Positions 3,757-58,460 of a stretch of 64,000 nucleotides of DNA are shown here, one piece after another. The number at the start of each line of letters is the position of its first letter. The first letter of the stretch is position 1. The position numbers and the translations under genes are program-made. The stretch covers positions 88,413 to 152,412 of the forward strand of contig JBJKVP010000006.1 of the NCBI GenBank assembly GCA_045562535.1. The letters are read 5' to 3'. The notes beneath the pieces were generated by a model. It was given only the letters and a program-made list of their open reading frames with translations, made no database searches and was not told the DNA's origin. The stretch is from Dehalococcoidia bacterium. Lineage in GTDB: Bacteria > Chloroflexota > Dehalococcoidia > UBA6926.

Positions 3757-3814
3757 CTCCTATAAAATCGAACCTGTAAACATCATACCATTCGCTACAA
3801 TCCGTCAATTAATA

Positions 3815-3891
<77 letters not shown>

Positions 3892-3991
3892 ACATTGGTT
3901 ATATTAAACCTATAATTGGGTAATTCCTATTGGTACTTATATTATCTATGCCCCAGATGTTCCATGTACCTTATCGATGTTAAGAGCTCTT

Positions 3992-5948: not shown

Positions 5949-6434
5949 TTAGTTCTTGATTAACTTGGTTATGGAAACAGCATCTGGTTGTGCTCCTGTT
6001 TGTCGCCATAATTCATTTCCTTTCTCATCAAAGACTAAAACTGCAGGGACAAGTTGGATTTCATAATCCTCTCTAATTTTTCTGCCAGACTCAGTATTGA
6101 TGTCTACTCGAATAAACTGAGCTTTAGACTCCAGTTCTTTTTCTAGCCGGTCCAAGAGCGGCTTGGCTGAAAGGCATCCTAGTCAACGATTTGAATAAAA
6201 TGAAACTACCACCTTATCGCCCCCTCCAACGAGGGTTTCAAAATCTTGGGATTTTTGTAGGGAACTACTGTTGCTGCTTAAACTGATTTGAAGAAAACTT
6301 AAGCTTACTATAGCAATCAATAGGATGCCCCATTTCCAAATACTTCCTCCATCTAATTTCAACAATACAATAACGATGAACGCGATAATGAAACCAGAAA
6401 CTATCAGGAACGAATTTTCGTTAAGCGTATTCAT
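5949..6434 (-). CDS. membrane-anchored thioredoxin-fold protein with in-frame TGA (6183-6185) at the first position of the CxxC motif; candidate selenoprotein (U-L-G-C), or a pseudogene
   Basis: ORF fragments 6183..6434 and 5949..6155 are in the same frame, separated by TGA plus 9 sense codons. The joined protein has 2 TM helices followed by VVVSFYSNR-[TGA]-LGCLSAKPLL...FIRVDI...QLVPAVLVFDEKG. That is a thioredoxin/TlpA-like layout with a cis-Pro motif. The downstream fragment has only a TTG 'start' and no SD. Confidence 0.55.
6152..6166 (-). promoter_or_regulatory. hairpin CCAAG-CCGCU-CUUGG beginning 16 nt after the in-frame UGA (possible bacterial SECIS upper stem)
   Basis: Perfect 5-bp inverted repeat with a 5-nt loop containing G. 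The loop G lies 26 nt from the U of UGA. The stem is short, so this is weak evidence on its own. Confidence 0.3.
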
Positions 6435-15973: not shown

Positions 15974-16123
15974 ATAGCCCCCTATTTATTTATAACCCAT
16001 TCTGACACGCAAGTGTCCCATGCTTGAACCAAAAATCCTATTTTGGATAGTTTGTTCATAATAGCTCATCATTGTCATTATAATTAAAGAAACGATCACA
16101 CTAAAAGGGGTGTCGTATTTGAA

Positions 16124-17197
16124 ATGAAAGATAAGTTCGCTGGTACCTCCCAAGTATTCCCTGGGTATAACTTAATCATACCGAATGGTCCTATTCAAAG
16201 CATGGGTAGAAATGGGCTAGATAACAACGCTTATCTTATAGATATGCACGGTGAAGTTCGCCACAAATGGGAGGTTAGCTCAGGCCTAAAGTATGGAATG
16301 CTGCTACCTAATGGTAATTTATTGGCTAGAACCAGGGCTCCTAAACAGTTGTCAATGGGGATACCACCGCTTGCTGGGTCGAGTGCATCAATTATAGAAA
16401 TTGACTGGGATAGTAATCTTATATGGAACTACGAGCATAATTCACTGCACCATGATTTTTCCCGAATAAAAAATGGTAATACGATAGCCCTTTTATGGGA
16501 GCAAATTCCAGTTCATCTTGTATCAAATATAAAAGGCGGGGTACAGCCTGATAAAAAAAGCGAATTCATGTTTGGTGATGTCTTGAGAGAAATAGATTCT
16601 AAAGGCGAAATTGTTTGGGAATGGAGATCTTGGGAGCATTTAGATTTTGATAACCAGGTTATTTGTGAAATGGAAAAAAGAGATGAGTGGACACATGCAA
16701 ATTCGGTATTTGTAATGCCAGATAACAACATATTAGTGAGTCTCAGAAACACTAATACCATCATCATTATAGATAAGGTTACTGGAGATATAGTTTGGGA
16801 ATGGGGAAGCGATGTCTTGCAGCACCAACACGATGCTACTTTATTGGATGAAACAAAGATTTTGGTTCTTGATAATGCTACACATAAGAATCAAGGTGCC
16901 AGGGTTATGATTGTCGATATTTTGACCCGTAAGGTGATTTGGGAATACTCTGGACCAAAAGACCGACCATTTAAAGCACCTTACGCAGGATCAGTAGAAA
17001 GACTTCCAAATGGCAATTGGTTTATATGCCAAGGTTCCGAAGGTAAAATATTTGAAAGCGATGGATCGGGGAGCATATTATGGGAATATACTAACCCGTA
17101 TTTTATACCAAACCAGTCAGGACAGCTGAACAATGGGTTATTTAGAGTACATCGATACCCTGTAGACCATCCCATATTTCGAGATAAGAATTTGTAG
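16124..17197 (+). CDS. beta-propeller protein, arylsulfotransferase (ASST)-like (tentative)
   Basis: 357 aa, no signal peptide. Recurring blade motif hWE(W/Y) (LIWNYEH, IVWEWRSWEH, IVWEWGSD, VIWEYSG, ILWEYTNP). Family assignment is from memory of ASST-like repeats only. Confidence 0.4.
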   Translation: MKDKFAGTSQVFPGYNLIIPNGPIQSMGRNGLDNNAYLIDMHGEVRHKWEVSSGLKYGMLLPNGNLLARTRAPKQLSMGIPPLAGSSASIIEIDWDSNLIWNYEHNSLHHDFSRIKNGNTIALLWEQIPVHLVSNIKGGVQPDKKSEFMFGDVLREIDSKGEIVWEWRSWEHLDFDNQVICEMEKRDEWTHANSVFVMPDNNILVSLRNTNTIIIIDKVTGDIVWEWGSDVLQHQHDATLLDETKILVLDNATHKNQGARVMIVDILTRKVIWEYSGPKDRPFKAPYAGSVERLPNGNWFICQGSEGKIFESDGSGSILWEYTNPYFIPNQSGQLNNGLFRVHRYPVDHPIFRDKNL

Positions 17198-17252
17198 TAT
17201 CCCTGTCAACTTGTGGTTCGTTAAAGAAATCTTTTTTTCTGTAAAACCAGCG

Positions 17253-19688: not shown

Positions 19689-20467
19689 TGAGGAGATCGT
19701 CGCTCCGTGAAAGCTAACGGCCCTTCTTTAGCATCTTCGCTGCCTAAAACTTTGGCAGATAATTCTTTAGAGAAGCGTTGTGAATTTTCAGGCGACATAC
19801 TTTTGCCCGTGTAAGCTATTTCTTTGATCGCCTGGACCGCAAGAGGTGCGCAGCTTTTTATTTGTTCAGCAATCCGCAAGCACGCTGCCATGACTTCCTC
19901 TCTATCTTCGACCACCTCTTGTATTAAACCTGATCGAAGCGCGTCTTCTGATGAGACTCTTTCCCCTGTCAACATTATTTTTAGTGCATCTCCTAGTGGC
20001 ATCATACGGGTCAGATAATGTAGTCCGTAACCTGGCATTATGCTCCACCTTGGCTCCGGCAGCCCAAACTGGGATTTTTTGCTAGCAACCCTTATGTCAC
20101 ATTGCATTGCTAATTCCAATCCTCCGGCTACACAAAACCCGTCGATGGCGGCTATTATTGGTTTCCATACACCTAAATCAGGAATATATTGGGACCCTAA
20201 GCTTGCTTCTGCAAAAGCTGATAACCCCTCTTCCTGCCTTTCGTTGACTTCCTTTAAGTCAGCTCCTGCTGAGAAGGCTTTTCCTCCTGCTCCAGTAACT
20301 ATGGCTACAAAAACTTCTGGGTCATTTTTGATTTCAATCCATGCATTATAAAGGCCTTCATTTACTGAGCTATTTAATGCGTTTAAAGCTTCGGGACGAT
20401 TAATGGTCACATACGCGATGTTGTCCTTCTTCTCATAGATTACGGTGTTATTTGTTGAGTTCGCCAT
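19673..20467 (-). CDS. enoyl-CoA hydratase/isomerase (crotonase) family
   Basis: 264 aa with VIYEKKDNIAYVTINRPEALNAL, GAGGKAFSAGADLKE, DGFCVAGGLELAMQCD. Confidence 0.85.
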   Translation of the reverse strand: MANSTNNTVIYEKKDNIAYVTINRPEALNALNSSVNEGLYNAWIEIKNDPEVFVAIVTGAGGKAFSAGADLKEVNERQEEGLSAFAEASLGSQYIPDLGVWKPIIAAIDGFCVAGGLELAMQCDIRVASKKSQFGLPEPRWSIMPGYGLHYLTRMMPLGDALKIMLTGERVSSEDALRSGLIQEVVEDREEVMAACLRIAEQIKSCAPLAVQAIKEIAYTGKSMSPENSQRFSKELSAKVLGSEDAKEGPLAFTERRSPQWKMR

Positions 20468-32528: not shown

Positions 32529-33062
32529 GTGAAAAAAAACCTAAAACCAATAATAGCTATAGCAGTTCTGCTTGGCGTCGTTGGTGTTTTACTTACCGTA
32601 GTTGCACCTAAGGCCGTCGCTTTTGTGTATCCGTTACCTGAAAACGAAGTAGTTTTCCCGCATGATTTTCATGCCGGTACTCTGGCCCTTGAATGCCAAT
32701 TCTGTCACACAGGTGCCGAGAACACTCGAGGGGCTAATGTGCCCGCTCTAGAACAGTGTATGTTTTGTCACAAGGTGGCGGGTTTGGAGAATCCAGAGGC
32801 AAAGAAGGTAAGAGTAGCTTGGGAATCTCAGGAACCCTTGAATTGGATTAGACAACACCGTTTACCTGACCATACTCATTTTAGGCATGAACCTCATATC
32901 ACCGCAGGATTTGAATGTTCTACGTGTCATGGAGACGTTGCGGCGATGAAACAAGTTGTCCAGGTGAAAACTGAAAAAGCTGGAGACCTCAAAATGGGAG
33001 ATTGCGTAGCTTGTCATAAGGAGAACGGAGCACCTCTTCAGTGTTCTACATGTCATAATTAG
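32529..33062 (+). CDS. actA: Alternative Complex III pentahaem cytochrome c subunit
   Basis: N-terminal TM anchor plus five CxxCH motifs (CQFCH, CMFCH, CSTCH, CVACH, CSTCH). First gene of the cluster. Confidence 0.8.
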   Translation: MKKNLKPIIAIAVLLGVVGVLLTVVAPKAVAFVYPLPENEVVFPHDFHAGTLALECQFCHTGAENTRGANVPALEQCMFCHKVAGLENPEAKKVRVAWESQEPLNWIRQHRLPDHTHFRHEPHITAGFECSTCHGDVAAMKQVVQVKTEKAGDLKMGDCVACHKENGAPLQCSTCHN

Positions 33063-33096
33063 ATAGTTAATATTTGTAAGGATTGGAAGGAATAAG

Positions 33097-35373
33097 ATGG
33101 ATCTCACTCGGCGAGACTTTTTGAGAGTAGCTGGAGCATCATCTGTTGCTGGCATATTGTTTGCGGGCTGTGCTATTCCTGAAAGAGAACTTATAAAACA
33201 AAGCCCAAGAGATATGCCTGAAGATTTAGCTACAGGTACAGAAGATTGGTACGCGACTCAATGCGGTATCTGCAATGAGCATCATGGAATCATCGTCCGA
33301 GTTTTAGAAGGACGAGCAAAGAAGATTGAAGGGAACCCAGATCACCCCACCAACCGAGGTCGACTATTGCCGACTTGCTTGAGTGGGGTTCAATCACTTT
33401 ACCATCCTGATCGGCTTACAACTCCTATGGCAGGGGATACTCCTATCAGTTGGGATGATGGAATGAAGAGGGTCGTCGATGCTTTTAATAGTAATAACTC
33501 TAAGAGGACACTTCTTATAACAGGCGCTGACACCACGCTTTTATCTCATGTGGTAGATGAATTTGTAGACGCTTCTGGAATCGAGCATATGGTTCTTGAA
33601 GATCTTGAAGATACTGTACTACGCAATGCCGTCAGCGATATTTTTGGCGAAGACGGGATTCCTCATTTTGATATCCAGAACGCTAAGACCGTTTTATCTA
33701 TAGGAGCAGACTTTTTAGAGTCATGGGTTGCACCCCTACAATACAGCAGAGCATATGGAGAATTTCGAAGCTCTGAAAATAGTGGGACAGGTGTCCGCGG
33801 CCACTTGATATATGCGGGCCCCAGATTTTCGATGACAGCTGCAAATGCCGATCAGTGGCTTCCTATTGCTCCAGGTCAGGAAAGTAATTTCGCTTTAAGC
33901 GTTGCCTACGTACTAATACGAGATAATTTAGCAGATGCATCAGTAGTGGATAAGATGACTAATGGCCGAGGGGCGACTGCGCTAGCTGCGTTTGCTCCAG
34001 AGACTATAGCTCCCCTCATAGGCGCTACCGAAGGTGTAATTTCGCCTAAGGATATCGAAGATGTAGCTAAGCATTTATCAGAAGAATCGCCCGGACTTGT
34101 TTTAGCAGGTGGCTCTGCGTCGGCTCAACAAAATGGTAACTTGAATATTAAGGCATCACTTTTAATTAATGCCCTACTTGGCAACATTGGAAAACAAGGT
34201 GGGATTCAATGGACCACAGACTCCCCTCTTAGAGAGCTGAATAATTTTAAAGCACCTAATACTTTTGCTGATTGGAAATCTGTAACTCAAAGGATGGACC
34301 AAGGCGAATTTGATTTAGTTTTAATTCATGGAGCCAACCCGGTGCACAATTTAGAAGTTCTTGATTTCAAAGATAAGCTATCTAAAGTTGGGTCAATTAT
34401 ATCTTTCTCTCCGATTATGGATGAAAGTGCAGAGCTGGCAAATTTGGTTCTACCTGATCAAAATTATTTGGAGACTTGGAATATTGGCGTTCCGAACCCA
34501 AACCCTGGGTACCCTGTATTGACACTTCAGCAACCGGTGGTTCCCGCATTACTTAATGAAGAAAATGAGATTGTCTACGATAATCGCCCATTTGGCGATA
34601 TTTTGACACACGTTGGTCAAGAACTTGGTTACAAATCGATCGCCTGGGAAAATATGGAAGATCTTGTGAAAACTAAAATGTCAGAGGTGCACAGGCGAAA
34701 TAGAGGAAGAGGCTCGATTCAAGGGGCGACTTTTGAGGCGTTTTGGGCAGGAGTGCTCCAGCGAGGTGGCTGGTGGGATACGAAAGCTCAGCAAACCAAT
34801 CTTGGGCCTGTTATAGCATCATTATCTGACACGGAACTTACTGTACAAAACAGCCCGACCGAAGCTGAGGATAGCGGTGTTTATCACCTTGTTCCTTTTG
34901 TTAGCGTGGGACTTGGTTCGGGGTCACAAAGCTATTTGCCGTGGCCGCAATCGACTCCCGACCCTGTGACTTCGGTAGTATGGGAGACTTGGGTAGAGGT
35001 TAATGCTCGTGAGGCGAAAAGACTTGGTTTGCGAGATGGGGACATAGTGAACGTTGAATCAGTAACTACTGGGGAGGAATCTTCAGTCATTCAGGCACCG
35101 GTTTATATACACCCTGGGATACCTCCTAATGTAGTGGGCATCCCTATGGGTAGAGGGCATACTGCATCAGGCAGATATGCAAAAGACTTTGGAACGAATG
35201 TAAGAAAACTTTTGTCCATCAGTGAAGTCGAAGGCACAGGAGCCCAGGCTTGGGGAGTTAGCAAGGTGACAATTAGTGGTACGGGCCAAAGGCTTCGATT
35301 ACCTCGTATGGAGGGTGGAATAACTGGTATGCAACTCGAAGGAACACATATTATTCAAGTTACGGGAAGTTAG
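33097..35373 (+). CDS. actB1: ACIII molybdopterin-oxidoreductase-like subunit (ActB, B1 part), Tat signal
   Basis: RRDFLRVAG twin-arginine motif followed by LFAGC. 758-aa Mo-bisPGD-enzyme-like fold. The N-terminal FeS motif is degenerate (CGICNEHH). Confidence 0.8.
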   Translation: MDLTRRDFLRVAGASSVAGILFAGCAIPERELIKQSPRDMPEDLATGTEDWYATQCGICNEHHGIIVRVLEGRAKKIEGNPDHPTNRGRLLPTCLSGVQSLYHPDRLTTPMAGDTPISWDDGMKRVVDAFNSNNSKRTLLITGADTTLLSHVVDEFVDASGIEHMVLEDLEDTVLRNAVSDIFGEDGIPHFDIQNAKTVLSIGADFLESWVAPLQYSRAYGEFRSSENSGTGVRGHLIYAGPRFSMTAANADQWLPIAPGQESNFALSVAYVLIRDNLADASVVDKMTNGRGATALAAFAPETIAPLIGATEGVISPKDIEDVAKHLSEESPGLVLAGGSASAQQNGNLNIKASLLINALLGNIGKQGGIQWTTDSPLRELNNFKAPNTFADWKSVTQRMDQGEFDLVLIHGANPVHNLEVLDFKDKLSKVGSIISFSPIMDESAELANLVLPDQNYLETWNIGVPNPNPGYPVLTLQQPVVPALLNEENEIVYDNRPFGDILTHVGQELGYKSIAWENMEDLVKTKMSEVHRRNRGRGSIQGATFEAFWAGVLQRGGWWDTKAQQTNLGPVIASLSDTELTVQNSPTEAEDSGVYHLVPFVSVGLGSGSQSYLPWPQSTPDPVTSVVWETWVEVNAREAKRLGLRDGDIVNVESVTTGEESSVIQAPVYIHPGIPPNVVGIPMGRGHTASGRYAKDFGTNVRKLLSISEVEGTGAQAWGVSKVTISGTGQRLRLPRMEGGITGMQLEGTHIIQVTGS

Positions 35374-35399
35374 ATAATTATGAATGGAGTGAGTGACAG

Positions 35400-36119
35400 A
35401 TGTCAGATGTAAAATGGGGAATGGTCGTCGATGTTGATAAATGCTCGGGATGCCAGGCATGTGTTATAGCCTGTATGGCAGAAAATAATATTCCAATTAA
35501 TTTAGACCGTGATTTTAAAGAGAATCGGTCGATTGCATGGATTCGCATAGAAAGATATTGGGAAGGCGAATATCCAGATGTAAAAGCAAGATTTTTACCG
35601 GTTTTGTGCCAGCATTGCGGGAATGCTCCTTGCGAGCCCGTTTGCCCAGTCTATGCAACATTCCATAATGATCAAGGTATGAACATCCAGGTTTATAATC
35701 GTTGTGTCGGCACCCGGTATTGCGCAAATAATTGCCCTTACCATGCTAGATATTTTAATTATCGTCGTCCCACTTGGCCAGAAACATACAATAACTACCT
35801 AAATCCAGATGTCACTGTCCGAGATCGAGGCATAATGGAAAAATGTAGTTTTTGTGTTCAAAGAATTAATGCTGCGACCCGAATTGCAAAACGAGATGGG
35901 AATGAAGATGCTATTGCAGGACTTCAGACCGCCTGTGCACAGGCGTGCCCAACCGATGCTCTGGTTTTTGGTAATCTTAATAATCCAGATAGCCAAGTAT
36001 CTCAGCTATACGATGACGAAAGGTCATACGTACTACAGGAATCCATAGGAACTCAGCCTAATATAAGGTATCTAAAGAAAATTGATGAACATGCTGCTGA
36101 AAAGGCACATGCTCACTAG
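35400..36119 (+). CDS. actB2: ACIII iron-sulfur subunit (ActB, B2 part)
   Basis: Ferredoxin-type Cys clusters CSGCQACVIAC, CQHCGNAPCEPVCP, CVGTRYCANNCP, CSFCVQRI, CAQACP. Confidence 0.85.
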   Translation: MSDVKWGMVVDVDKCSGCQACVIACMAENNIPINLDRDFKENRSIAWIRIERYWEGEYPDVKARFLPVLCQHCGNAPCEPVCPVYATFHNDQGMNIQVYNRCVGTRYCANNCPYHARYFNYRRPTWPETYNNYLNPDVTVRDRGIMEKCSFCVQRINAATRIAKRDGNEDAIAGLQTACAQACPTDALVFGNLNNPDSQVSQLYDDERSYVLQESIGTQPNIRYLKKIDEHAAEKAHAH

Positions 36120-36145
36120 AAAAAAAGGACGGAAAGAATACAAGA

Positions 36146-37549
36146 ATGCAAAATACTGATGGAAATGAAGTGGTAAATCCTGGGGCACCTGCGACCCAGG
36201 AAGATCTTACTCAAGAACTGCTCCATGACTCTCTTCAGACAGGATCTAGGATGCGCAAAGCATTGCTGATCTCTGGTGTGTTATCGATTCTTGGATTCGT
36301 AGGCCTTTTTATGCATTTTGCTAGCGGAACTAGCGACCATACAACCTGGAATTTTTATGCTGTTGTATATTTTTATGTATTTTCTGTGACCATGGGGATA
36401 CCTATGGCGAGCATTGGGCTGAGGATGGCGCGTGCGCAGTGGCGGCGCCCTACTAGTAGATCTGCGGAGCTATTTGCAATAGCTGGGCCAATTAATTTGA
36501 TATTCTTCATACCAATTTTATTGGTTGCTCCTCCAATTGAAGGAAGAAATAGCTTATGGATGGATTGGGCCCTTGCGCCGTGGTTCCCAGATATAATAAT
36601 GATGGTGTTATTAGTGGTGACAGGGTTAGCATTTTTGTATGTTTCGCTGCTTCCTGATTTAGCTAGCGTTAGAGATCATGGGACCGGGAGAGCCCAGAGG
36701 GTAGCAAAAACCTTGTCTAGAGACTGGAATGGAACGAAATCTCAGTGGTCGATTCATAAGTCGGCGTTAGGTATTTTAGGAGCGTTCTACATAACAGCAT
36801 ATGCTATGACTCATCTGGTTTTATCTACTGATTTTGCCATGACTTTGGTTCCTGGATGGAAGGACCCTATTTTCCCGGCATTTCATGCTGTTACAGGGAT
36901 CCAGATGGGTGCAGCCTTACTAATAGTTACTATGTACTTATTACGCCGTTTAGGTGGCCTCGGGAGATACTTCGAGCTAGAACAATTCTGGGGGTATAGT
37001 CGTTTACTACTTGCACTTAGTTTGTTTTATTTCTACTTCTGGTGGTGTGCTTTTATTTTATTCTGGTATGCTCGCTTACCACATGAGCAATCTGTAGTGG
37101 CATTGTTTATTTCCGGAGACTATGCTGATCCAAATGTTTTTACTAGGCCTCAGTTCTTAATGTTTGTGGGAGCCATAGGATTTTCCTTCATTCTCCCATT
37201 CCTTTTACTGATGTGGAATATTCTACGGCGTAGCATAGTTGCCCCTACGATTGTGGGTGTAATTGTGCTTATAGGTGGATTTTTCGATCGTATGAGATTA
37301 TACGCTAACTCTTGGTCTGTTGATCAGGTAGGCGGGCATGGGCTACATCACATACCAGAGGTGAATGCCCCGACAATTCCTGACCTTTTTGTATTGATTG
37401 GCATGGTGTCTTCTATACTATTCTTATACTTACTGGTTTCAAGAGTAGTTGGATTTGTGTCCTTATGGGAGACCAGACAAGCATTACTCTTAAGATTTGT
37501 TAAACCATGGGGCGTTGGCCACGCAAGCGTGGTAATTAAACCGGAATAA
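36146..37549 (+). CDS. NrfD/PsrC-like integral membrane subunit, divergent (ActF-like?)
   Basis: 467 aa, polytopic, with the NrfD-type region MARAQWRRPTSRSAELFAIAG. More divergent than the next gene. Confidence 0.65.
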   Translation: MQNTDGNEVVNPGAPATQEDLTQELLHDSLQTGSRMRKALLISGVLSILGFVGLFMHFASGTSDHTTWNFYAVVYFYVFSVTMGIPMASIGLRMARAQWRRPTSRSAELFAIAGPINLIFFIPILLVAPPIEGRNSLWMDWALAPWFPDIIMMVLLVVTGLAFLYVSLLPDLASVRDHGTGRAQRVAKTLSRDWNGTKSQWSIHKSALGILGAFYITAYAMTHLVLSTDFAMTLVPGWKDPIFPAFHAVTGIQMGAALLIVTMYLLRRLGGLGRYFELEQFWGYSRLLLALSLFYFYFWWCAFILFWYARLPHEQSVVALFISGDYADPNVFTRPQFLMFVGAIGFSFILPFLLLMWNILRRSIVAPTIVGVIVLIGGFFDRMRLYANSWSVDQVGGHGLHHIPEVNAPTIPDLFVLIGMVSSILFLYLLVSRVVGFVSLWETRQALLLRFVKPWGVGHASVVIKPE

Positions 37550-37614
37550 GGATTGGAGTGCAGAATTGATTTTGAATATTAATGGGGATTTAGAGGAGAT
37601 AGAAAGAGCGTAAC

Positions 37615-39006
37615 ATGCAAGATCGACCCACATTAACGCCTACACAGATCAACGACGAGTTACTGTGGCCTGTTTTCTCCTTTAGAAAACGGCACGCGGT
37701 AGCATTCATTCCGCCGATGATATTGTTAATGGGTGGCGTAGCAGCTGTTACTATCCTTATCTATCAAGGACTTTGGGTTACCGGACTGCAGAGGCCCGCC
37801 TTTTGGGGATTTTTCATTGTTAATTTCGTTTTCTGGATTGGGGTGAGCCACGCGGGGACTATGATTTCCGCAATATTGCGTTTGACCCAAGCAGAATGGA
37901 AGAGACCTATTACAAGAGCAGCTGAGGTCATGACAATATTTTCTTTGGTGACTTCATTATTACACCCTGTTATTCACGCCGGTAGACCTTGGCGGATTAT
38001 ATATTGGTTACTACCTTACGATTTTTCGAGAGGTATATGGCCTGACGTTCGGTCTCCTCTCGTTTGGGACCCAATAGCAATAACAACCTATTTAACAGGT
38101 AGCGTATTGTTCGTTTTCACAGCGTTGATACCAGATTTTGCATTGATTCGTGATCAGAGTACCGGACTTAGGAAGAAAATTTATGGGAGTTTGGCTTTCG
38201 GTTGGAGAGGGACTCCCAGACAATGGAAATTGCAAGGAATATTTGGAATATTGATGTCAGCACTGATTCTTCCAGTTTTCGTTTCGGTTCATAGTATAGT
38301 TTCTTGGGATTTCGCGGTCTCAGTCGTTCCTGCGTGGCACGTTACCGTTTATGCGCCATATTTTGTTATCGGTGCTGTTCATTCGGGAGTCTCCATGGTT
38401 TTGACATTGATGGCTCTTATGAGATGGATATTCAAATTAGAGAATTATATCTGGGAAGATCATTTTGACGCAGTTGGGAGACTTTTAATAGTAATCGCCA
38501 CCTTGTGGTTATTTTTCTTTTTCCTTGATTTTGCGTTCTCATTTTATACGAGAGAAGAGCAAGAGTTGGCAGTGATGGAAAGACGTCTTTTCGAATGGCC
38601 CTTTAATGCTATTACGGTGATCATGGTGTTCACTTCATATGTTATTCCTATACCATTGTGGTTAAGTAGGAGAGTACGAAGGAATATTCCATTGATGTTC
38701 TGGACATCTATACTTGTCAATATTGGTATGTGGCTAGAGAGATATTTCCTGATAATACCTGCGATCGAGCGCAAAAATGAGCTTACCTTCCTTTGGTCTA
38801 ATTATGTTCCGAGTTTGATTGAGAGCTTGGTAGTGTTGGCGTCCTTTGGTATGGTTGGCTTCTTGTTATTACTTTTTGCGAAAGTTGTTCCTTTGGTTCC
38901 TGCTTGGGAAGCGAAGGAGGGAGTAGTATTCAGAGAAGATGTCCAATTCGGAGAAGTAGTACTTCCCGGAATTATTAAAGAAACAGAAGAGGAAAATGTT
39001 TGGTAG
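37615..39006 (+). CDS. actC: NrfD/PsrC-like quinol-interacting membrane subunit (ActC-like)
   Basis: 463 aa with FWGFFIVNFVFWIGVSHAGTMISAILRLTQAEWKRPITRAAEVMTIF, typical of the NrfD family. Confidence 0.75.
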   Translation: MQDRPTLTPTQINDELLWPVFSFRKRHAVAFIPPMILLMGGVAAVTILIYQGLWVTGLQRPAFWGFFIVNFVFWIGVSHAGTMISAILRLTQAEWKRPITRAAEVMTIFSLVTSLLHPVIHAGRPWRIIYWLLPYDFSRGIWPDVRSPLVWDPIAITTYLTGSVLFVFTALIPDFALIRDQSTGLRKKIYGSLAFGWRGTPRQWKLQGIFGILMSALILPVFVSVHSIVSWDFAVSVVPAWHVTVYAPYFVIGAVHSGVSMVLTLMALMRWIFKLENYIWEDHFDAVGRLLIVIATLWLFFFFLDFAFSFYTREEQELAVMERRLFEWPFNAITVIMVFTSYVIPIPLWLSRRVRRNIPLMFWTSILVNIGMWLERYFLIIPAIERKNELTFLWSNYVPSLIESLVVLASFGMVGFLLLLFAKVVPLVPAWEAKEGVVFREDVQFGEVVLPGIIKETEEENVW

Positions 39007-39030
39007 TGGTCGTTGTTAAGGAGCTTCGAA

Positions 39031-39552
39031 ATGGCGGATAATAAAGATTTAATGGGTGTTTTTGCAGATACAGATACTGCGGCAGAGGGCGCTCGCCAAT
39101 TAAAGAGTGCTGGGTTTGTACAGGATGATTATGATGTTCTTACTGGCAACCCTTACCCCGAGGGAGCCTTTGGTGAGCATGTAAAACCGAATCGTCTGTT
39201 TGTCTTTGCTTTAGCGGGGGGCTTTGTTGGCTTTGCTATAGCATTCTTATTTACTGCAGCAACCCAAACTGCTTGGCCGTTAGTTACTGGCGGAAAACCA
39301 ATTCTGGCACTACCGGCAATGATGATAATTATGTATGAAATGACTTTGTTGTTTGCCATGATTTTCACCGTTACTGGTGTGATTTTTGAAAGTAGATTGC
39401 CTAGGCTTGGTGGCGAAGGACCTGTATACGACACAAGAATTACTTTGGGGTATATAGGTTTAATAGTCACTACTACTGAAGATCGCTTAGAAAAGGCAGA
39501 GGAAGCTTTTAAGGCGGCCGGTGCTGAGGATATAGTGAGGGAGTCATCCTAG
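39031..39552 (+). CDS. actD: ACIII subunit ActD (DUF3341-like)
   Basis: MADNKDLMGVFADTDTAAEGARQLKSAGF soluble head plus 2 TM. Start at ATG 39031 (AAGGAG upstream). Confidence 0.7.
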   Translation: MADNKDLMGVFADTDTAAEGARQLKSAGFVQDDYDVLTGNPYPEGAFGEHVKPNRLFVFALAGGFVGFAIAFLFTAATQTAWPLVTGGKPILALPAMMIIMYEMTLLFAMIFTVTGVIFESRLPRLGGEGPVYDTRITLGYIGLIVTTTEDRLEKAEEAFKAAGAEDIVRESS

Positions 39553-39554
39553 AA

Positions 39555-40232
39555 GTGAAACTACTTAATCAGCTGATGCAAAAACAGCGTTCAAATAAAC
39601 TATCCGTTGCTGGGAAAAAACGAGTGATGGCAGTATCTGCCGTGTTATTTTTTCTTCTAAGCGGGTGTTCTGTAGGAGCTTATCCGGTCGATAACTTCCA
39701 AGAGATGCATTATTCACAGGCAATTCGGAGACAAGAAATGCCTGTTATGTCAGCACCTAGCAATTCTATTGGATATCAAGGAGCTGGAGGTCCTGCTGCC
39801 GAAGTCAGCGTACCCCCGGCGTATGATTTGATGAAACAAGAAGATTTGATTTTAGTCACGGCTAACCCTGTTGTTTTGAACGACCTTGTGCGCGATGAAG
39901 GAGAACAATTATTTATCCGTAATTGCGCGGTTTGCCACGGTATGGAAGGGGATTTGCAAGGTGGTGCTGGTCCAGCACTCTTGGCGGCTTCTTTTGAAGC
40001 GGCAGGGGTTAACCCTCCTTTAGATTTAACCTTAGGCGAAACGAAAAATAGAACGGATGGAGATATCTTTGGAATACTGACTCATGGTCAAGGCTCTATA
40101 CCGGCGCCGTCTGATGCTGTTGATCCTGAGGTATGGTCTACATTGACGAGCATGCCCTCGTTTTCAAAATTACTTACAACTGAACAACGGTGGGCAATTG
40201 TTCACCACTTGAGAAAACTGCAAGGCTCTTAA
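39555..40232 (+). CDS. actE: ACIII monohaem cytochrome c subunit ActE, probable lipoprotein
   Basis: Lipobox FLLSGC. Single CAVCHG haem motif with distal TSMPSF Met candidate. Start ambiguous (GTG 39555 or ATG 39576). Confidence 0.7.
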   Translation: MKLLNQLMQKQRSNKLSVAGKKRVMAVSAVLFFLLSGCSVGAYPVDNFQEMHYSQAIRRQEMPVMSAPSNSIGYQGAGGPAAEVSVPPAYDLMKQEDLILVTANPVVLNDLVRDEGEQLFIRNCAVCHGMEGDLQGGAGPALLAASFEAAGVNPPLDLTLGETKNRTDGDIFGILTHGQGSIPAPSDAVDPEVWSTLTSMPSFSKLLTTEQRWAIVHHLRKLQGS

Positions 40233-51451: not shown

Positions 51452-51618
51452 AATTAATATTCATTATGCGAATTATGAAACAGATGATCAATAGGATAAA
51501 TTGAACAACTTAATATATATGGAAATTCGTATAAATAGGTTGACGTCTGAATATAGGGTTAAGTAGAATTACCGGGTTGGGGGATAATTGATCTTATTCT
51601 TCACAGAAGGAGAATTCA

Positions 51619-52794
51619 ATGACAGGGACATTAAAAGGAAAAGCGGCTTTGGTAGGGGTTGGTTGGACTCCTGCTCGTAGAAAATGGCCGGATAAAACAC
51701 AAAAAGGTATGCAGGCAGACGTTGCCGCGATGGCAATCAAGGATGCAGGATTGCGCCCAGAGGACATCGATGGTCTGGTTACAGAAGCACCCGGAGGGGA
51801 AGACGCCAACAACTGGCCAGCTATAATGTCCGATTATTTAGGAATTAAGCCTAATATGGCCAGCGGAGTCAACAATATGGGCGCTACCGGTACTACCGGA
51901 ATAGTTCTTGCGTCTACTTGGGTTTCCAGCGGTCTTGCTGAGACAGTTCTACTCGTTTTTGGAGGTAATCAAGGGACCCAACCCAGAGTTGCTCCTAGGC
52001 CTAATCCATTTGTGGATCCATATGGCCCAGTTGTTGCTGCAAACGGTTGGTATGCTCAGGTCGCACGTCGACACGCTTTCGAGTATGGAACTACAGACGA
52101 AATGAGATTTAAAGTAGCAGCTGATCAGAGATTTAACTCACAAGTGACCCCAGGATCTGCTTTTCTTGAGCAGCCGATTACGGTACAGGACGTTGCTGAT
52201 TCTCGATATGTTGCAGACCCTCTCAGATTGCTCGAATGTGTTATGCCTTGTGCCGGAGGTGGGGCAATGATTGTCACAACACCGGAAAAAGCTCGAGCGA
52301 TGAAAAACAAACCAGTTTACATGCTTGGAGCTGGCCATCATACAGATCATAATGATTTGAGTTGGGCAGACCGAATTACAAGGACACCAGCCGTTGTTTC
52401 TGCTCCTAGAGCGTTCAACATGGCAGGGCTCAGTCCGAAAGATATGGATTTCGCTCAGATCTATGATTGCTATACCATAACGGTTATGGTGACTCTCGAA
52501 GACGCTGGGTTTATGCCTAAAGGTGAGTCAGGACCTTGGTACCAAGAGACTGATACTACCTATAAGGGAGATTTCCCAGTTAATACGCACGGTGGCCAGT
52601 TGTCTTACGGACAGCAGGCAGGAAACACCGGCGGCTTCTCACAGCCTATGGAAGCAACTCTCCAATTAATGGGGCGTGGTGGCGAAAGACAAGTTAAGGA
52701 TGCAACAACAGGATTCGTGAATGGTTGAGGCGGCATTTTGAGCAAGTTTTGCTCAATAGTTCTTACCAATGATGAGTCTTTGGCTAATTCTTAG
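51619..52794 (+). CDS. thiolase-superfamily protein (SCP2/Ltp2-like, DUF35 partner) with in-frame TGA at 52726-52728; the conventional model ends at 52728
   Basis: 369-aa ORF with YDCY (HDCF-like) and NTHGGQLS motifs. Gly sits at the usual nucleophile position (NNMGATG). After the TGA the same frame continues GGILSKFCSIVLTNDESLANS-TAG, which looks like the normal thiolase C-terminal strand. The SD of the next gene follows. Confidence 0.6.
52738..52756 (+). promoter_or_regulatory. perfect 7-bp hairpin TTGAGCA-AGTTT-TGCTCAA starting 9 nt after the in-frame UGA (candidate bacterial SECIS)
   Basis: All seven pairs are Watson-Crick. The 5-nt loop AGUUU has G at loop position 2, 20 nt from the U of UGA. 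No U-tract follows, so it is not a typical terminator. Confidence 0.45.
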
Positions 52795-52821
52795 AATATA
52801 AGTTATTAAAGGAGTTTAATC

Positions 52822-53253: not shown

Positions 53254-53297
53254 CTAATGGTCTATAAGGTGATAATAAACCTATAAGAAACAAAAAT

Positions 53298-53330
53298 TCT
53301 GCTGAGTCACAGTCTCGGCAGAATTTTTTT
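53298..53330 (+). terminator. Rho-independent terminator after the thiolase-like/DUF35 pair
   Basis: TCTGCTGAG-TCACAGT-CTCGGCAGA (9-bp stem including one G-U) followed by ATTTTTTT. Confidence 0.65.
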
Positions 53331-53365: not shown

Positions 53366-53881
53366 ATGGATAATGTTGAAATTATTAAAACCCTAATGGA
53401 ACATGTGCGCCAATCTTTTCTAGACGTCATGGAAAATGTAGATCAAGAGGTTGCTGATTGGCTTCCCCCGGGAGAAGCTCATCCGATACGAATGAGTAAC
53501 CTGCATTGTTTATGGGCTGAAGATCGTTTTATAAATGTTTTTCTCCAAGAGGCTCCAACAATTTGGAGTGTTATTGGACTTGAGGAAAAAACTGGGTTGA
53601 TACCTGGAAGACTTCCCAGCGCGGAATGGGCCCGTTCTACGCCTATTGATATCAATCAACTTAGAGAAGTCTATATGCCCGCTCTTTTTGAAGGAACTGA
53701 TAAATATTTAGGTAGTTTAAAAGCCGATGATTTAGATAAGCCGGTGAAATCTGATGTTGCAGATTTAAATGGTCTAAAAGCTGGAGAAATATTGATTCGA
53801 TTTGCACTTCATAATGCTAACCATATAGGAGAGATCGCATCTCAAAAAGGGACGCAAGGTCTTAAGGGTTACAGCTTTTAG
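53366..53881 (+). CDS. DinB-family (DinB/YfiT-like four-helix-bundle) protein, copy 1
   Basis: 171 aa. N-terminal helix ...FLDVMENVDQEVADWLPPGEAHPI and C-terminal HNANHIGEIASQKG, typical of the DinB_2 style. Confidence 0.7.
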   Translation: MDNVEIIKTLMEHVRQSFLDVMENVDQEVADWLPPGEAHPIRMSNLHCLWAEDRFINVFLQEAPTIWSVIGLEEKTGLIPGRLPSAEWARSTPIDINQLREVYMPALFEGTDKYLGSLKADDLDKPVKSDVADLNGLKAGEILIRFALHNANHIGEIASQKGTQGLKGYSF

Positions 53882-53891
53882 GAGGACTCAG

Positions 53892-54425
53892 ATGGATGGC
53901 TTACACGTTATAAAAACATTGATCGTAAGGATGCATGAATCTTTTCTAGATGTTATGGAAAATGTGGATCAAGAGGTTGCTGATTGGCTTCCAACTGGAG
54001 AAGCTCATCCGATTCGAACGAGCGCTGCTCATATTTTGTGGGTGGAGGATGCCTTCGTTAACGCGGTGATAAGGGAATCGACTACAGTATGGGCTGACTT
54101 AGGGTTGCAAGAGAAAACAGGGATTCGCCCAGGCCCTATTCCTAATTTGGAATGGGCGCAGACTACCAAAATCGATATCGAAGAATTAAAGAAAGTATAC
54201 GTAAATGAGCTTTTTGAAAATACAGAGGCATATATAGGGAATTTGGACCCAAAAGACTTAAATCGAGATATTGATATTGAAGGGAAAGGCCGGGCTCTCA
54301 AGCGTGTTCTTATTGGAACCAGGGTTTCAGATATATTGCTTACTCTTTCAATTCACAGCGCTAACCATATAGGAGAGATCGCATCTCAAAAAGGGACTCA
54401 AGGTCTTCAAGGGTACAGTTTCTAG
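53892..54425 (+). CDS. DinB-family protein, copy 2 (tandem paralogue)
   Basis: 177 aa. Shares FLDVMENVDQEVADWLP.GEAHPIR and SANHIGEIASQKGTQGL.GYSF with copy 1. Confidence 0.7.
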   Translation: MDGLHVIKTLIVRMHESFLDVMENVDQEVADWLPTGEAHPIRTSAAHILWVEDAFVNAVIRESTTVWADLGLQEKTGIRPGPIPNLEWAQTTKIDIEELKKVYVNELFENTEAYIGNLDPKDLNRDIDIEGKGRALKRVLIGTRVSDILLTLSIHSANHIGEIASQKGTQGLQGYSF

Positions 54426-55370: not shown

Positions 55371-56903
55371 ATGGTAAAAATTAGGTACTTTTTGGGGATG
55401 ATGGCTATAGCCTCTTTATTTATTTTTGTAGCGTGTGGAGGCGGAGAAACAAGTTCAAGTGAGACGGAGACTGTGAAACCTCAAGAAACGACCTCTACGG
55501 CATCTACAGAGGCACCTGCTCAAAAGGCAGAGGAGCCTAAGAAAGAAGAACCTAAGCCTGAGCCTAAGAAAGAAGAACCTAAGCCAGAACCTAAAAAAGA
55601 GGAGCCTAAGGCAGAACCTAAAAAAGAAGAGCCTAAGGCAGAACCTAAAAAAGAAGAGCCTAAACCAGAGCCCAAGGCAGAACCTAAGAAAGAAGAACCT
55701 AAACCAGATCCAGCTCAATATGCTGGACCAAATTTGGGCTTAAATACCAACAAGGTGTTCCCAATTCATGTACCAGCAGATGCAAGTGCTAAAGCAAGAC
55801 TGGTTAGCCTCGGTATTAACGTGCCCCAGACAGGCTCACTTGAGGAAGCGAATCATGAGTTTATGGCAGGATTAAATGTAGACCCAGGTTATAAAGAGCG
55901 TTGGGTGGAGCATCAGACCAGTATAAATAGCGTATTGGGAGCCTACCCGAACTTTATGATCATAGCTTATGATAAGAGTGGAACAGACGAAGATATTCAA
56001 GCAATTGGAAACCGACTTACCGAACTTCAATGGCCTGGTGACACTAATTCTAGTATGTATGTAGAGAACTGGACCGTTGATGCTCTGAACCAATACAAAA
56101 CGTGTCTTACTTCCGGTGACACAGGGGTAAGGAGAACGTCCACAAGCAACCCGCACAGTATGTGCATTATGGAATACCAAAAGTTTCGTGCCTATCGGTA
56201 CGATGCCGGTCTTCCGACAGCAAAAAATCACGCGCAATTAGCTATCCATGATGCCCATGAATATTTCCATCATTACCAGAAAGCCCATGCTCTGGAACGA
56301 GGGTTAGACCTTGCTTCAGATCCAGACAACCCTGAGACAACGGTACAAGCTCCAAGATGGTGGATAGAAGGAGCAGCGGTTAGTTTTTCCCATGCATGGT
56401 ATAAAGCTAACTGGGAGTCTCTATCATTTATGAAAGATCAAACAGTCATGTGGTATGGCCAAGAATACGATTTAGCGACTGCTAATATAGGTACTGTAGC
56501 CACAGCTCAAGATTTCAAAAACACAAAGAAACTAGTTAGAGGCGAGTTAGAAGGACATGAAATAGGTGCTGGTTGTACTTCAGACTGGAAACTACAAGAG
56601 AGTGAAGAAGACTCTGCAACGGAAACAAGGTGTTTCTCAAGTCTACAGGCTGTTGCTTATATGGCACATCTAACCTCATGGAAAACTGTTTGGATTGACA
56701 TACCCCAAGACTATTACGATCTCGGATTTTGGGGATCTTTTGAAAAGCATATAGGCATGGAAAAACAAGAATTCTATGACGCGTATAATAACCTCATGAC
56801 ATCTGGAGACGTAAACGATGCACCACCTGAAGGATGGACTGTTCCAGAAGGTGCAATATCAGAATATGCTGACTTTTTGAAAATAGTACCTGAGTCGGAT
56901 TGA
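55371..56903 (+). CDS. lipoprotein with KKEEPK(P/A)EP linker and HExxH...E (gluzincin-like) C-terminal domain, paralogue A
   Basis: Signal and lipobox YFLGMMAIASLFIFVAC-GGG, 6 linker repeats, HDAHEYFHH...WWIEGAAVSF. Confidence 0.65.
   Translation: MVKIRYFLGMMAIASLFIFVACGGGETSSSETETVKPQETTSTASTEAPAQKAEEPKKEEPKPEPKKEEPKPEPKKEEPKAEPKKEEPKAEPKKEEPKPEPKAEPKKEEPKPDPAQYAGPNLGLNTNKVFPIHVPADASAKARLVSLGINVPQTGSLEEANHEFMAGLNVDPGYKERWVEHQTSINSVLGAYPNFMIIAYDKSGTDEDIQAIGNRLTELQWPGDTNSSMYVENWTVDALNQYKTCLTSGDTGVRRTSTSNPHSMCIMEYQKFRAYRYDAGLPTAKNHAQLAIHDAHEYFHHYQKAHALERGLDLASDPDNPETTVQAPRWWIEGAAVSFSHAWYKANWESLSFMKDQTVMWYGQEYDLATANIGTVATAQDFKNTKKLVRGELEGHEIGAGCTSDWKLQESEEDSATETRCFSSLQAVAYMAHLTSWKTVWIDIPQDYYDLGFWGSFEKHIGMEKQEFYDAYNNLMTSGDVNDAPPEGWTVPEGAISEYADFLKIVPESD
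55530..55712 (+). repeat. in-frame 27-nt tandem repeat array (about 6 units, KKEEPK[P/A]EP)
   Basis: Direct reading of the sequence. Units are cct aag aaa gaa ga[a/g] cct aag [cc/gc]a ga[a/g]. Confidence 0.9.
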
Positions 56904-56948: not shown

Positions 56949-58460
56949 ATGGTAAAAGCTAAGTACTTTTTGGGGATGATGGCTATAGCCTCTTTATTTA
57001 TTTTTGTAGCGTGTGGAGGCGGAGAAACAAGTTCTAGTGAGGCGGAGAGTCCGAAACCTCAGGAAACGACCTCTACGGCATCTACAGAGGCACCTGCCCA
57101 AAAGGCAGAGGAGCCAAAGAAAGAAGAACCTAAGCCAGAGCCTAAGAAAGAAGAGCCTAAGCCAGAACCTAAGAAAGAAGAACCTAAGCCAGAGCCTAAG
57201 AAAGAAGAGCCTAAGCCAGAACCTAAGAAAGAAGAACCTAAACCAGAACCGACACCTGCGCCTATTATTCTTCCAAGCGCTGACCTTTTTACTAATTTCT
57301 CGGCATGTGGTTGGGATTCAAGTTATGCGATTGATAACGGCTCGCTGTTTCTTTCATCGACTGAAACCCCAGGGAGTAAATCTGTTGGGAATTTAAATCT
57401 TGATTTCATACCTTCTATGGTTGGGCAGACACATTCTAATCTTAAAAATCAAACGTTAGGTTTTGCTTTCCATGACTATACCAGAACAGAAATAGATATA
57501 AATAAGTCAATACATATGGTAGCTATACCTGCAGGGAAAACGCCATTTAAGTTGGATTTAAACATAGCTGTGTCAGGGAAAGGATCAGATGGTAACTCAT
57601 GTTCGACTACAATAACGGAACAATTTACCCGTAGCGATGATTTTTATCCTAGCGCAGAACTGTCTATACCCAGCAACGCTATACCCGATAAAGACAAATA
57701 TAAGCCATTTTCAATTCCTGCACCTACAGCTCAAGCTTTATTCTTAGCTACATCGCAGAGTAACTACGACGATAATTATGGAAAAGTCCGCGTAAATAAT
57801 ACTGAAGGTTACTTTGTAAAGAAGCCCCCGAGCACTCTAAGAGTGGGTCTTTTTGGAGACGTCAAATCTGATGACTATGAAACAATTCGTGATTATATCG
57901 AAGTCCTCGCAGTGGTAGCTCCTGATTTAGACATAGCTTGGGCAAATAATATTTCAGAAGTCACGTTTCCGATGCATTTGCTTTCATGCACTGAGCTCAT
58001 AAATGAGACTATCGACCAGTATTGCAATACGTCCGGCCCATCTGGCGGATTTTCGGATCAGTGGGGCTCGGGTAATCTCGCGACAGGTTGGGGTTTCATT
58101 CGTGTATCAGATCAGGCTATGGGATCCAGACATACGTTAACCCATGAGTTGGGACATGCTGTGGGTCTTTGGCATTCTGGAGTTGGCAGTAGTAGCATGG
58201 GGCCACCCAATAACCAGGCTGGTCACTGGGCTGCTCATGATTTAATGGTTGTCGCTTTAGTTAATAATTCTGGTGTGGTATCAGGTCAAACCCGTGAAGA
58301 AATTAGAGTTGCATTTAATATAGCGAATGATGAATTACAAGGCTTTATTGACAATCCTGCTACATTGTCAAATGCACCTGATCCTGTTTGGGTTGAGCTT
58401 GGAGATAAGCTTAAGGCCCAATTCAATAGCTCATCAATGGGGAAACGGTTAGGAAGATAA
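56949..58460 (+). CDS. lipoprotein with KKEEPKPEP linker and metzincin-type zinc-protease motif, paralogue B
   Basis: Same leader as A and C, 5 linker repeats. C-terminal HTLTHELGHAVGLWH (HExxHxxGxxH) followed by SSSMGPP. Confidence 0.7.
   Translation: MVKAKYFLGMMAIASLFIFVACGGGETSSSEAESPKPQETTSTASTEAPAQKAEEPKKEEPKPEPKKEEPKPEPKKEEPKPEPKKEEPKPEPKKEEPKPEPTPAPIILPSADLFTNFSACGWDSSYAIDNGSLFLSSTETPGSKSVGNLNLDFIPSMVGQTHSNLKNQTLGFAFHDYTRTEIDINKSIHMVAIPAGKTPFKLDLNIAVSGKGSDGNSCSTTITEQFTRSDDFYPSAELSIPSNAIPDKDKYKPFSIPAPTAQALFLATSQSNYDDNYGKVRVNNTEGYFVKKPPSTLRVGLFGDVKSDDYETIRDYIEVLAVVAPDLDIAWANNISEVTFPMHLLSCTELINETIDQYCNTSGPSGGFSDQWGSGNLATGWGFIRVSDQAMGSRHTLTHELGHAVGLWHSGVGSSSMGPPNNQAGHWAAHDLMVVALVNNSGVVSGQTREEIRVAFNIANDELQGFIDNPATLSNAPDPVWVELGDKLKAQFNSSSMGKRLGR
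57108..57251 (+). repeat. in-frame 27-nt tandem repeat array (5 units, alternating two synonymous variants = 54-nt super-period)
   Basis: Direct reading of the sequence. Confidence 0.9.

Follow-up and report, generated by a model that had tools for sequence, protein, structure and literature searches.

Whether an in-frame UGA ends a gene or encodes selenocysteine (Sec) is the question raised by one locus in a 64,000-nucleotide (nt) stretch of DNA from a Dehalococcoidia bacterium (assembly GCA_045562535.1, contig JBJKVP010000006.1, positions 88,413 to 152,412), which is referred to here as the window. An ATG at 51619 opens a 369-codon open reading frame (ORF) for a thiolase-like protein whose stop codon is TGA at 52726-52728, and past this TGA the same frame encodes 21 further codons (GGILSKFCSIVLTNDESLANS) before TAG at 52792-52794. 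The 369-residue product is identical to NCBI MFL2640624.1, annotated "thiolase family protein [Dehalococcoidia bacterium]", and the public record therefore holds the truncated form. A preliminary description of the window had noted this ORF and its continuation, together with a DUF35 partner gene whose Shine-Dalgarno sequence lies 3′ of the TAG, and all of these were found in the sequence (AAGGAG at 52809-52814; matches of the partner to PF01796 and PF12172). Our best overall explanation, to which we assign a probability of roughly 0.82, is that the gene encodes a selenoprotein of 391 residues rather than a protein of 369.

The UGA codon in its protein family

When translated through the UGA, the protein matches PF22691 (Thiolase_C_1; E 2.5e-47) over residues 239-383, a match that thus spans the UGA, and among solved structures it matches PDB entries 9myr, 4u4e, 7yvy, 6ok1 and 6hsj. 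The closest of these is 9myr (E 1.7e-84), which represents CtSal, a DUF35-bound retro-aldolase that cleaves bile-acid side chains by means of Tyr302 and Cys304. In this enzyme the thiolate is stabilised by Gln347 and Gln352, and Gln161 makes up the oxyanion hole along with the backbone N of Gly391 (PMC12329534). Residues Y282, C284, Q327 and Q332 and the G-x-G-G loop of the window protein align to this active site, with Q327 and Q332 being the equivalents of Gln347 and Gln352. At the position of the thiolase nucleophile the protein carries Gly88 (NNMGATG), and Gly is kept there family-wide. All four residues expected of a classical Cys-His-Cys thiolase are replaced, with Gly88 in place of the CxS Cys, YDCY in place of the NEAF Asn, G-Q in place of the GHP His and U-G-G in place of the CxG Cys, and every NCBIfam thiolase model scores far under its cut-off. 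By homology, the predicted gene product is a Sal/Ltp2-type, DUF35-partnered member of the thiolase superfamily. The preliminary description had likewise reported an apparent Gly at the nucleophile position, a YDCY motif and a likeness to Ltp2-type enzymes that pair with DUF35, and the profiles, the alignment and the 9myr match agree with it in depicting a DUF35-partnered protein that is devoid of a nucleophile. We have not filed the protein as an orthologue of either Sal or Ltp2 because its DUF35 partner is free-standing, being neither fused to nor beside a MaoC hydratase, and because the neighbours are DNA-repair, DinB and hydrolase genes. Pfam annotation of the window ORFs revealed no steroid-degradation genes in the 64 kilobases (kb).

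The position of the UGA within the fold can be specified by reference to published structures. Once the PDB chain numbering of 9MYR is corrected by its 24-residue offset, the corresponding CtSal loop reads S387-G388-T389-G390-G391, and the UGA column falls on Thr389, two residues before the oxyanion-hole Gly391. This spacing equals that of Cys378-x-Gly380 in classical thiolases, and a structure-based alignment equates the NGG motif with CxG 378-380 (PMC3406046). Because NGG is what the sense-type homologues carry at this point, the earlier placement of the UGA on the CxG Cys was correct, and the comparison with structures that had been suggested as a check yields Thr389 in CtSal and Cys378 in classical thiolase. 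The predicted Sec370 is thereby sited, according to alignment and published structures, in a U-G-G loop equivalent to the classical C-x-G loop. The tail encoded after the UGA aligns to GGIMSEQCSLVLG of full-length homologues and to 9myr residues 414-425, in keeping with the earlier claim that read-through restores the terminal beta-strand.

We compared this codon across 80 genomic relatives (DNA of the loci), mostly Dehalococcoidia metagenome-assembled genomes (MAGs), and five close orthologues. A protein search returned two length classes, in which about 40 of 120 match clusters end exactly at the TGA column (...FVNG, ...FVNT or ...MVNG) and the remaining clusters run on as ...VNG-N-GGIMSEQCSLVLG. 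At the DNA level, the column codon is TGA in 35 of the 80 loci and in all five close orthologues, TAA or TAG in none, and a sense codon for Asn (AAC/AAT), Thr or Ser in the other 45 loci. Each of the 35 TGA codons is followed by a conserved in-frame tail such as GGTASEMCSLVLGSEDTL. Tails in TGA-type homologues measure 17-21 codons, and the true terminator that follows them is TAA or TAG in 40 of 40 cases. These 40 TGA-type loci are almost all from Dehalococcoidia MAGs, are 43-85% identical to the window protein, and carry a DUF35 gene downstream in 35 instances. The five close orthologues (76-85% identity), which share a UvrA-Ham1-HhH_GPD-thiolase-DUF35 synteny with the window, retain both the TGA and the tail; the tail is kept despite synonymous differences, and similarity stops at their TAA or TAG. 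The window protein's 90% cluster has 65 members, every one of which terminates at GFVNG. Several genomes carry more than one TGA-type paralogue at distant sites, namely OZ242019.1 (L002, L031), OZ219871.1 (L038, L050) and UBA6926 (L008, L016). The UGA family is widespread and paralogous in Dehalococcoidia, and the existence of orthologues with TGA at the same codon, another check that had been put forward, extends to about 40 species with a conserved in-frame tail.

Hairpins downstream of UGA and a second UGA codon

Beginning 9 nt 3′ of the TGA, the window carries a hairpin with an 8-bp stem and a 3-nt loop whose G, at 52746, is 20 nt from the U of the UGA. The preliminary description had its place, its spacing and its loop G right but counted 7 bp and a 5-nt loop. 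The accompanying remark that no U-tract follows does not hold for the window, where the 3′ flank UAGUUCUU has U at 5 of 8 positions and for this reason led a lax scan to label the hairpin terminator-like, but it does hold for the orthologues, whose hairpins have no U-run on the 3′ side.

The significance of the window hairpin derives from comparative data. A stem of at least 6 bp lies directly downstream of the column in 41 of 41 TGA-type sequences versus 13 of 41 sense-type sequences, and the mean folding free energy (ΔG) of the hairpin is -10.2 versus -4.1 (Mann-Whitney p 1e-11). Relative to synonymous-codon shuffles, which preserve the peptide and codon usage, the mean z score is -2.28 for TGA-type and +0.06 for sense-type sequences. 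Among the 33 distinct sequences, the first nucleotide of the apical loop always falls between +19 and +23, and the loop includes GU in 29. At least 14 different stem sequences occur among TGA-type genes, and the hairpin core is invariant in close orthologues. Because the stems occupy slightly shifted registers between clades, as was seen when MAFFT re-imposed the codon register on loop-centred hairpins, covariation was counted only in the largest same-register group. Within this group, compensatory double changes are present at 7 of 9 stem pairs, and none of 500 shuffles matches the observed covariation value on any of five measures. The covariation score of 0.39 falls to 0.13 or less once the partner strand is slid. 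The geometry also fits the published definition of a bacterial selenocysteine insertion sequence (SECIS), which calls for a stem of 6-8 bp whose loop carries a conserved G some 20 nt 3′ of the UGA (PMC4605307). Judged from these comparisons, the hairpin is a selected, covarying, SECIS-like RNA element specific to TGA-type genes as a class. The SECIS-like geometry that was first remarked upon in a single sequence has thus proved to be conserved, and covariation in orthologues, which had been named as a means of checking it, is present. At gathering thresholds, Rfam reported only tRNAs in the window and no match to a SECIS family.

Two other hairpins were seen in relatives of the window gene. 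In many homologues (e.g. L011-L017, L021, L031 and L048), but not in the window clade, the stretch from +32 to +52 past the loop TGA forms a second hairpin, the perfect palindrome GUCCUCG-GGUC-CGAGGAC, whose codons specify VLGSED. This hairpin might provide SelB with a second site or stabilise the SECIS. In four Asn-type loci (L068, L069, L072 and L078), an 8-9 bp hairpin, AUGAGCGAG-CAGGU-CUCGCUCAU, is located at +13 to +35 after the AAC codon. This hairpin may be left over from a Sec codon that once stood there, or may be a pre-adaptation arising from the MSEQxSL peptide.

A second in-frame TGA is present in 18 TGA-type loci (L006, L007, L009, L010, L015, L016, L018, L019, L022-L025, L027, L029, L031, L037, L048 and L067), where it occupies the position of the YDCY Cys (FAEFYD-TGA-YTIL) about 255 nt 5′ of the loop TGA. 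Database fragments that terminate at residue 283 bear out this pattern. The YDCY Cys of the family corresponds to Cys304 of CtSal, which is catalytic, with C304A, C304S and C304H all being inactive (PMC12329534). Each of these TGA codons has a stem-loop of its own, with an apical loop of CGUGA or CGUGU at +21 and a ΔG of -11.6 versus -6.0 in genes with a Cys codon (p 2.5e-6 and 6e-9). The occurrence of either TGA or Cys at this site is the classic signature of a putative Sec/Cys pair.

The two sites appear not to vary independently of each other. Among 86 loci, the residues at the YDxY and loop positions are C/N in 38, C/U in 23 (the window's type), U/U in 18, S/S in 4, C/T in 3 and U/N in none, the YDCY TGA being confined to genes that also have the loop TGA. 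A Ser/Ser lineage (YDSY/F and G-S-GG, with TCN codons; L054, L059, L061, L071; P0061, P0083, P0092, P0096, P0100, P0107) is nested in the TGA clade, which suggests that both active-site positions were gained and lost together. The absence of U/N, the loss of both residues in the Ser/Ser lineage and the lack of the YDCY Cys in both of the relatives that have Cys in the loop suggest that the two positions are functionally coupled. In L067, tandem paralogues (~1600-2830 and 3001-4190) are both of the U/U type.

Based upon these patterns, we propose that SelB and tRNA-Sec, recruited by the in-frame hairpin at 52738-52756 acting as a SECIS, would insert Sec at UGA 52726-52728, and that the ribosome would then read the last beta-strand of the thiolase fold and end at TAG 52792. 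The full 391-residue protein would partner the DUF35 protein. Sec370 would adjoin Cys284 at the alpha-carbon of a bound acyl-coenzyme A (acyl-CoA), where the two might constitute a selenol/thiol pair that shuttles a proton or forms a reversible Se-S couple (selenenylsulfide) while a beta-hydroxyacyl-CoA undergoes C-C cleavage of the retro-aldol or a related kind. Cys284 would be exchanged for Sec in 18 relatives, giving a Sec/Sec active site. The steps of this proposal differ in strength. Recoding of the UGA as Sec is very probable, Sec insertion itself being something that we infer from the comparisons. A bolder version, which we think unlikely, would have this protein as the first thiolase-superfamily selenoenzyme, with a C-C cleaving site rebuilt around Cys-Sec (Sec-Sec in 18 relatives). 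Sec would then be back at the ancestral CxG position, possibly as the missing nucleophile (by way of a selenoester acyl-enzyme) or as a redox-gated switch, and the loop Sec would exemplify a class invisible to searches for Sec/Cys pairs.

Selenocysteine and other explanations

The long ORFs of the window stop at TAA in 24 cases, TAG in 16 and TGA in 6, with TGA ending UvrA and four other long ORFs. Because TGA is an ordinary stop in these five other ORFs, the code is the standard one and recoding would be site-specific. In the whole 64 kb, an in-frame TGA is flanked on either side by coding sequence in two genes only. The second of them encodes a membrane-anchored thioredoxin-like protein in which TGA takes the place of the first Cys of a CxxC motif. 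An orthologue with 79% identity (L088), which was the sole match in a homologue search, keeps the TGA, and one gene caller translated this orthologue with TGA as Trp. Indirectly, this UxxC gene supports a Sec-decoding trait in the genome. In BSepDB, the ten bacteria richest in selenoprotein genes include Dehalococcoidia MAGs that have 49 and 46 of them (PMC13326102). The flanks of the loci were also scanned for TGA-interrupted genes, but noise in the GC-rich DNA was too high for the result to be of use. One response-regulator-like ORF, on the minus strand of L037 near position 5100, has an in-frame TGA (MLVEDEGTV-TGA-DAVIEATNGLEAL) where Cys is not the usual residue, and could be a pseudogene, an error or a further recoding site.

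Several observations weigh against a selenoprotein. Neither the 64-kb window nor ~600 kb of related loci yielded a selA, selB, selC or selD gene; ARAGORN predicted no tRNA-Sec in the window or in 43 loci, pattern searches for SelD and SelB motifs in the window and the fetched loci gave no match, and Pfam annotation of 44 further window ORFs gave no sel genes, the single AIRS match being PurL. The thioredoxin-like gene, as represented by the window copy and its single orthologue, has no clear conserved SECIS. On its own, the window hairpin is marginal (z -1.8 versus synonymous shuffles, and -0.6 for the 86-nt region), and a few Asn-type genes likewise form a hairpin at this position. Across the family the residue in the loop column varies, being Cys in just 2 of 150 representatives, and in the close homologues with a sense codon it is Asn, Thr or Ser, a pattern atypical for selenoproteins. 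Furthermore, the catalytic role that we infer for Sec370 is tentative, with odds somewhat below even. The preliminary description had held that a non-Cys residue in sense homologues would speak against Sec. Such residues are indeed what these homologues carry, but in our view this is overridden by the conserved TGA with its SECIS-like hairpin and by the 18 homologues in which a further TGA takes the place of the YDCY Cys.

The lack of Cys at the loop column of sense homologues and the failure to locate Sec machinery in the window or the fetched loci also count in favour of a read-through event, stimulated by the SECIS-like hairpin, that inserts a standard residue. This residue could be Cys, delivered by an opal-decoding tRNA-Cys and a SelB-like factor, or a near-cognate Trp or Arg, and the product would be of full length and free of selenium. 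Cys-inserting variants of the Sec system have been described in some bacteria, and our evidence shows recoding rather than the identity of the inserted residue. However, the second TGA replaces a catalytic Cys, and there would be no reason to keep a TGA and a hairpin for plain Cys. The hairpin geometry and GU loop also suit recognition by SelB, and Dehalococcoidia are documented as Sec-rich (PMC13326102). We consider insertion of a standard residue improbable. It is less likely still that the TGA is a genuine stop, leaving a functional protein of 369 residues and a hairpin that serves mRNA stability, attenuation or termination, or translational coupling to the DUF35 gene. Public annotation calls the gene in this manner, and the lax scan regards the hairpin as terminator-like. 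In addition, Sec recoding in bacteria is incomplete, reaching ~30-40% in Escherichia coli (PMC4513850), which makes it likely that a part of the product is truncated anyway. Nevertheless, the tail is conserved in both amino acids and frame, and it matches the terminal beta-strand of the family that is present in the CtSal crystal structure. The stop at the column is always TGA, whereas the terminators after the tail are always TAA or TAG, and the 18 genes with a TGA at YDCY would forfeit 25% of the protein, including active-site loops. The window hairpin was rejected as an intrinsic terminator on the strength of its orthologues, which have no U-run.

We hold a pseudogene, a sequencing or assembly error, or genome-wide reassignment of TGA (code 4 or 25) to be extremely unlikely and in effect refuted. 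The gene caller that read the thioredoxin orthologue TGA as Trp fits reassignment, but this was rejected given that TGA terminates UvrA and the four other long window ORFs and interrupts just two window genes. A pseudogene or an error was likewise rejected, as the same TGA is shared by the 65 cluster members, which come from many samples, and by ~40 diverged species. A Sec-encoding UGA remains our preferred reading of the locus. In these terms, the gene is a well-supported candidate for a new selenoprotein family within a known superfamily, with a known bacterial SECIS mechanism and an unusual placement of Sec.

Genomic context, implications and comparison with known systems

Features of the locus and of the second TGA-interrupted gene, in window coordinates
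Feature	Position	Strand	Basis
Promoter-like site TTGACG-18-TAGAAT, 5′ of the gene pair	51540..51569	+	Consensus match only, 10/12; not above shuffle expectation
Thiolase-like (Sal/Ltp2-type) coding sequence, codons 1-369, upstream of UGA	51619..52725	+	PF22691 Thiolase_C_1, 9myr match
Gly88 codon, at the classical thiolase nucleophile Cys position (CxS loop)	51880..51882	+	Alignment; equivalent of CtSal Gly89 (PMC12329534)
Y282-D-C284-Y motif (TAT GAT TGC TAT), catalytic Tyr/Cys dyad of Sal-type aldolases	52462..52473	+	CtSal Tyr302/Cys304 mutagenesis (PMC12329534)
In-frame UGA, proposed Sec codon, residue 370, first position of U-G-G loop	52726..52728	+	Comparative
C-terminal tail GGILSKFCSIVLTNDESLANS, 21 codons, terminal beta-strand of thiolase fold	52729..52791	+	Homologue and 9myr alignment
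SECIS-like hairpin UUGAGCAA-GUU-UUGCUCAA, 8 bp	52738..52756	+	Folding and comparative
TAG, true stop of the full 391-residue protein	52792..52794	+	Sequence; TAA/TAG in TGA-type homologues
Shine-Dalgarno AAGGAG of DUF35 partner gene, 7 nt 5′ of ATG 52822	52809..52814	+	Sequence
DUF35 partner, Zn-ribbon and OB-fold, 143 aa	52822..53253	+	PF01796 E 4e-23, PF12172; identical to NCBI MFL2640625.1
Intrinsic-terminator-like hairpin, 15-bp stem and T-run, closing the two-gene operon	53292..53328	+	Sequence scan
Membrane-anchored thioredoxin-like gene, in-frame TGA 6185-6183 at first Cys of CxxC (SFYSNR-U-LGC)	5949..6434	-	Thioredoxin (Pfam) and TIGR01068 matches span TGA

Several other gene groups of the window deserve mention. 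Two DinB_2-superfamily paralogues stand in tandem directly 3′ of the thiolase-DUF35 operon (53366-53881 and 53892-54425, plus strand). They are followed by a further tandem pair (55371-56903 and 56949-58460, plus strand) with an identical signal/lipobox-like N-terminus, long (KKEEPKPEP)n repeats and no Pfam match, the second of which has a C-terminal zincin-like HELGHAVGLWH motif. On the minus strand at 14753-20467, three family-III CoA-transferase domains (two of them in one gene) are found by an enoyl-CoA hydratase and close to a flavin adenine dinucleotide (FAD) monooxygenase and MFS transporters. This cluster, 30 kb from the selenoprotein candidate, possibly represents an acyl-CoA catabolic context. 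An alternative-complex-III-like cluster (32529-40232, plus strand), comprising a multihaem cytochrome c, a molybdopterin-family subunit, a 4Fe-4S protein, an NrfD-like protein, ActD and a cytochrome c, indicates an aerobic respiratory lifestyle.

Full-text literature searches that combined selenoprotein and thiolase returned nothing relevant. Thiolase, acetyltransferase and aldolase families go unmentioned in the selenoproteome reviews, resources and discovery papers, a survey in which the BSepDB family table was not covered, and NCBIfam (June 2026) has no dedicated model, all matches being below the cut-off. A Sec-containing protein of the thiolase family is apparently undescribed on the evidence of the full-text searches and NCBIfam, in agreement with the preliminary description, which knew of none in the superfamily. 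Current selenoprotein pipelines demand Sec/Cys pairs (PMC12013277, PMC2398784), and this would explain why the C/U type has been overlooked so far. At one of its two sites this family breaks the usual discovery rule of a Cys aligned with Sec, which implies a blind spot in selenoproteome surveys.

On the bolder version outlined above, the selenoproteomes of marine Dehalococcoidia, and the selenium dependence of their organic-matter degradation, would have been underestimated. A selenoenzyme of this family would tie selenium availability to acyl-CoA catabolism in an abundant group of ocean heterotrophs, and would bring a C-C lyase scaffold, not an oxidoreductase, into the small set of folds in which enzymes use Sec. 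Its Sec residues would occupy positions whose catalytic roles have been set by mutagenesis and crystal structures, making Sec directly comparable with Cys, Asn and Thr. There is also a consequence for databases: the NCBI annotation of these genes is truncated or fragmented, and dozens of Dehalococcoidia genomes have several such paralogues.

Among characterised enzymes, the nearest relative is CtSal-ShyDUF35, the bile-acid C5 side-chain retro-aldolase of Comamonas testosteroni (PDB 9MYR; PMC12329534). It shares with the window pair the Gly at the nucleophile site, the YDCY dyad, the two Gln of NTHGGQLSxGQ, the G-x-G-G loop with its oxyanion-hole Gly, and a DUF35 partner. CtSal differs in having Thr389 where the window has UGA, and identity is only ~40-45%. 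Moreover, its DUF35 is a domain at the C-terminus of Shy, a MaoC hydratase, whereas that of the window is a free-standing protein of 143 residues with no hydratase nearby. The steroid C3 side-chain aldolase TcLtp2-ChsH2DUF35 (PDB 6OK1) has the same fold, the same DUF35 partnership and no nucleophile Cys, and its catalytic Tyr lies in YDxF (PMC12329534). TcLtp2 is more distant (E 2.4e-37, with an alignment that ends before the C-terminal loop). Since it has YDHF and a second Tyr, Tyr344, where the window protein has YDCY and Gln, the latter is Sal-like rather than Ltp2-like.

Classical thiolase, as exemplified by the Zoogloea ramigera enzyme with its CxS, NEAF, GHP and CxG loops, belongs to the same superfamily, and the UGA falls at Cys378 of CxG, the catalytic base (PMC3406046). 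However, it employs Cys89 as nucleophile where the window protein has Gly88, and it has NEAF and GHP in place of YDCY and GQ; thiolysis through an N-terminal acyl-Cys intermediate is therefore impossible for the window protein. The thiolase-like proteins MsTLP1 and TbSLP resemble the window family in their degenerate thiolase fingerprints (YSCF/YDCF motifs), and their NGG loop is the sense counterpart of UGG (PMC3406046), but they have no DUF35 partner, carry extra C-terminal domains and contain no recoded codon. With canonical bacterial selenoproteins such as E. coli FdhF, the window gene has in common an in-frame UGA, a hairpin of 6-8 bp within the ORF whose loop G(U) is ~20 nt farther on (PMC4605307), and a predicted active-site location for Sec. 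Of the selenoproteins known so far, almost all are oxidoreductases and have homologues with Cys in place of Sec (PMC12013277). The window family departs from these in having Asn, Thr or Ser at the loop site of its sense homologues and in its C-C lyase/thiolase-fold scaffold, and it is predicted to hold up to two Sec residues that are distant in sequence and meet at one active site.

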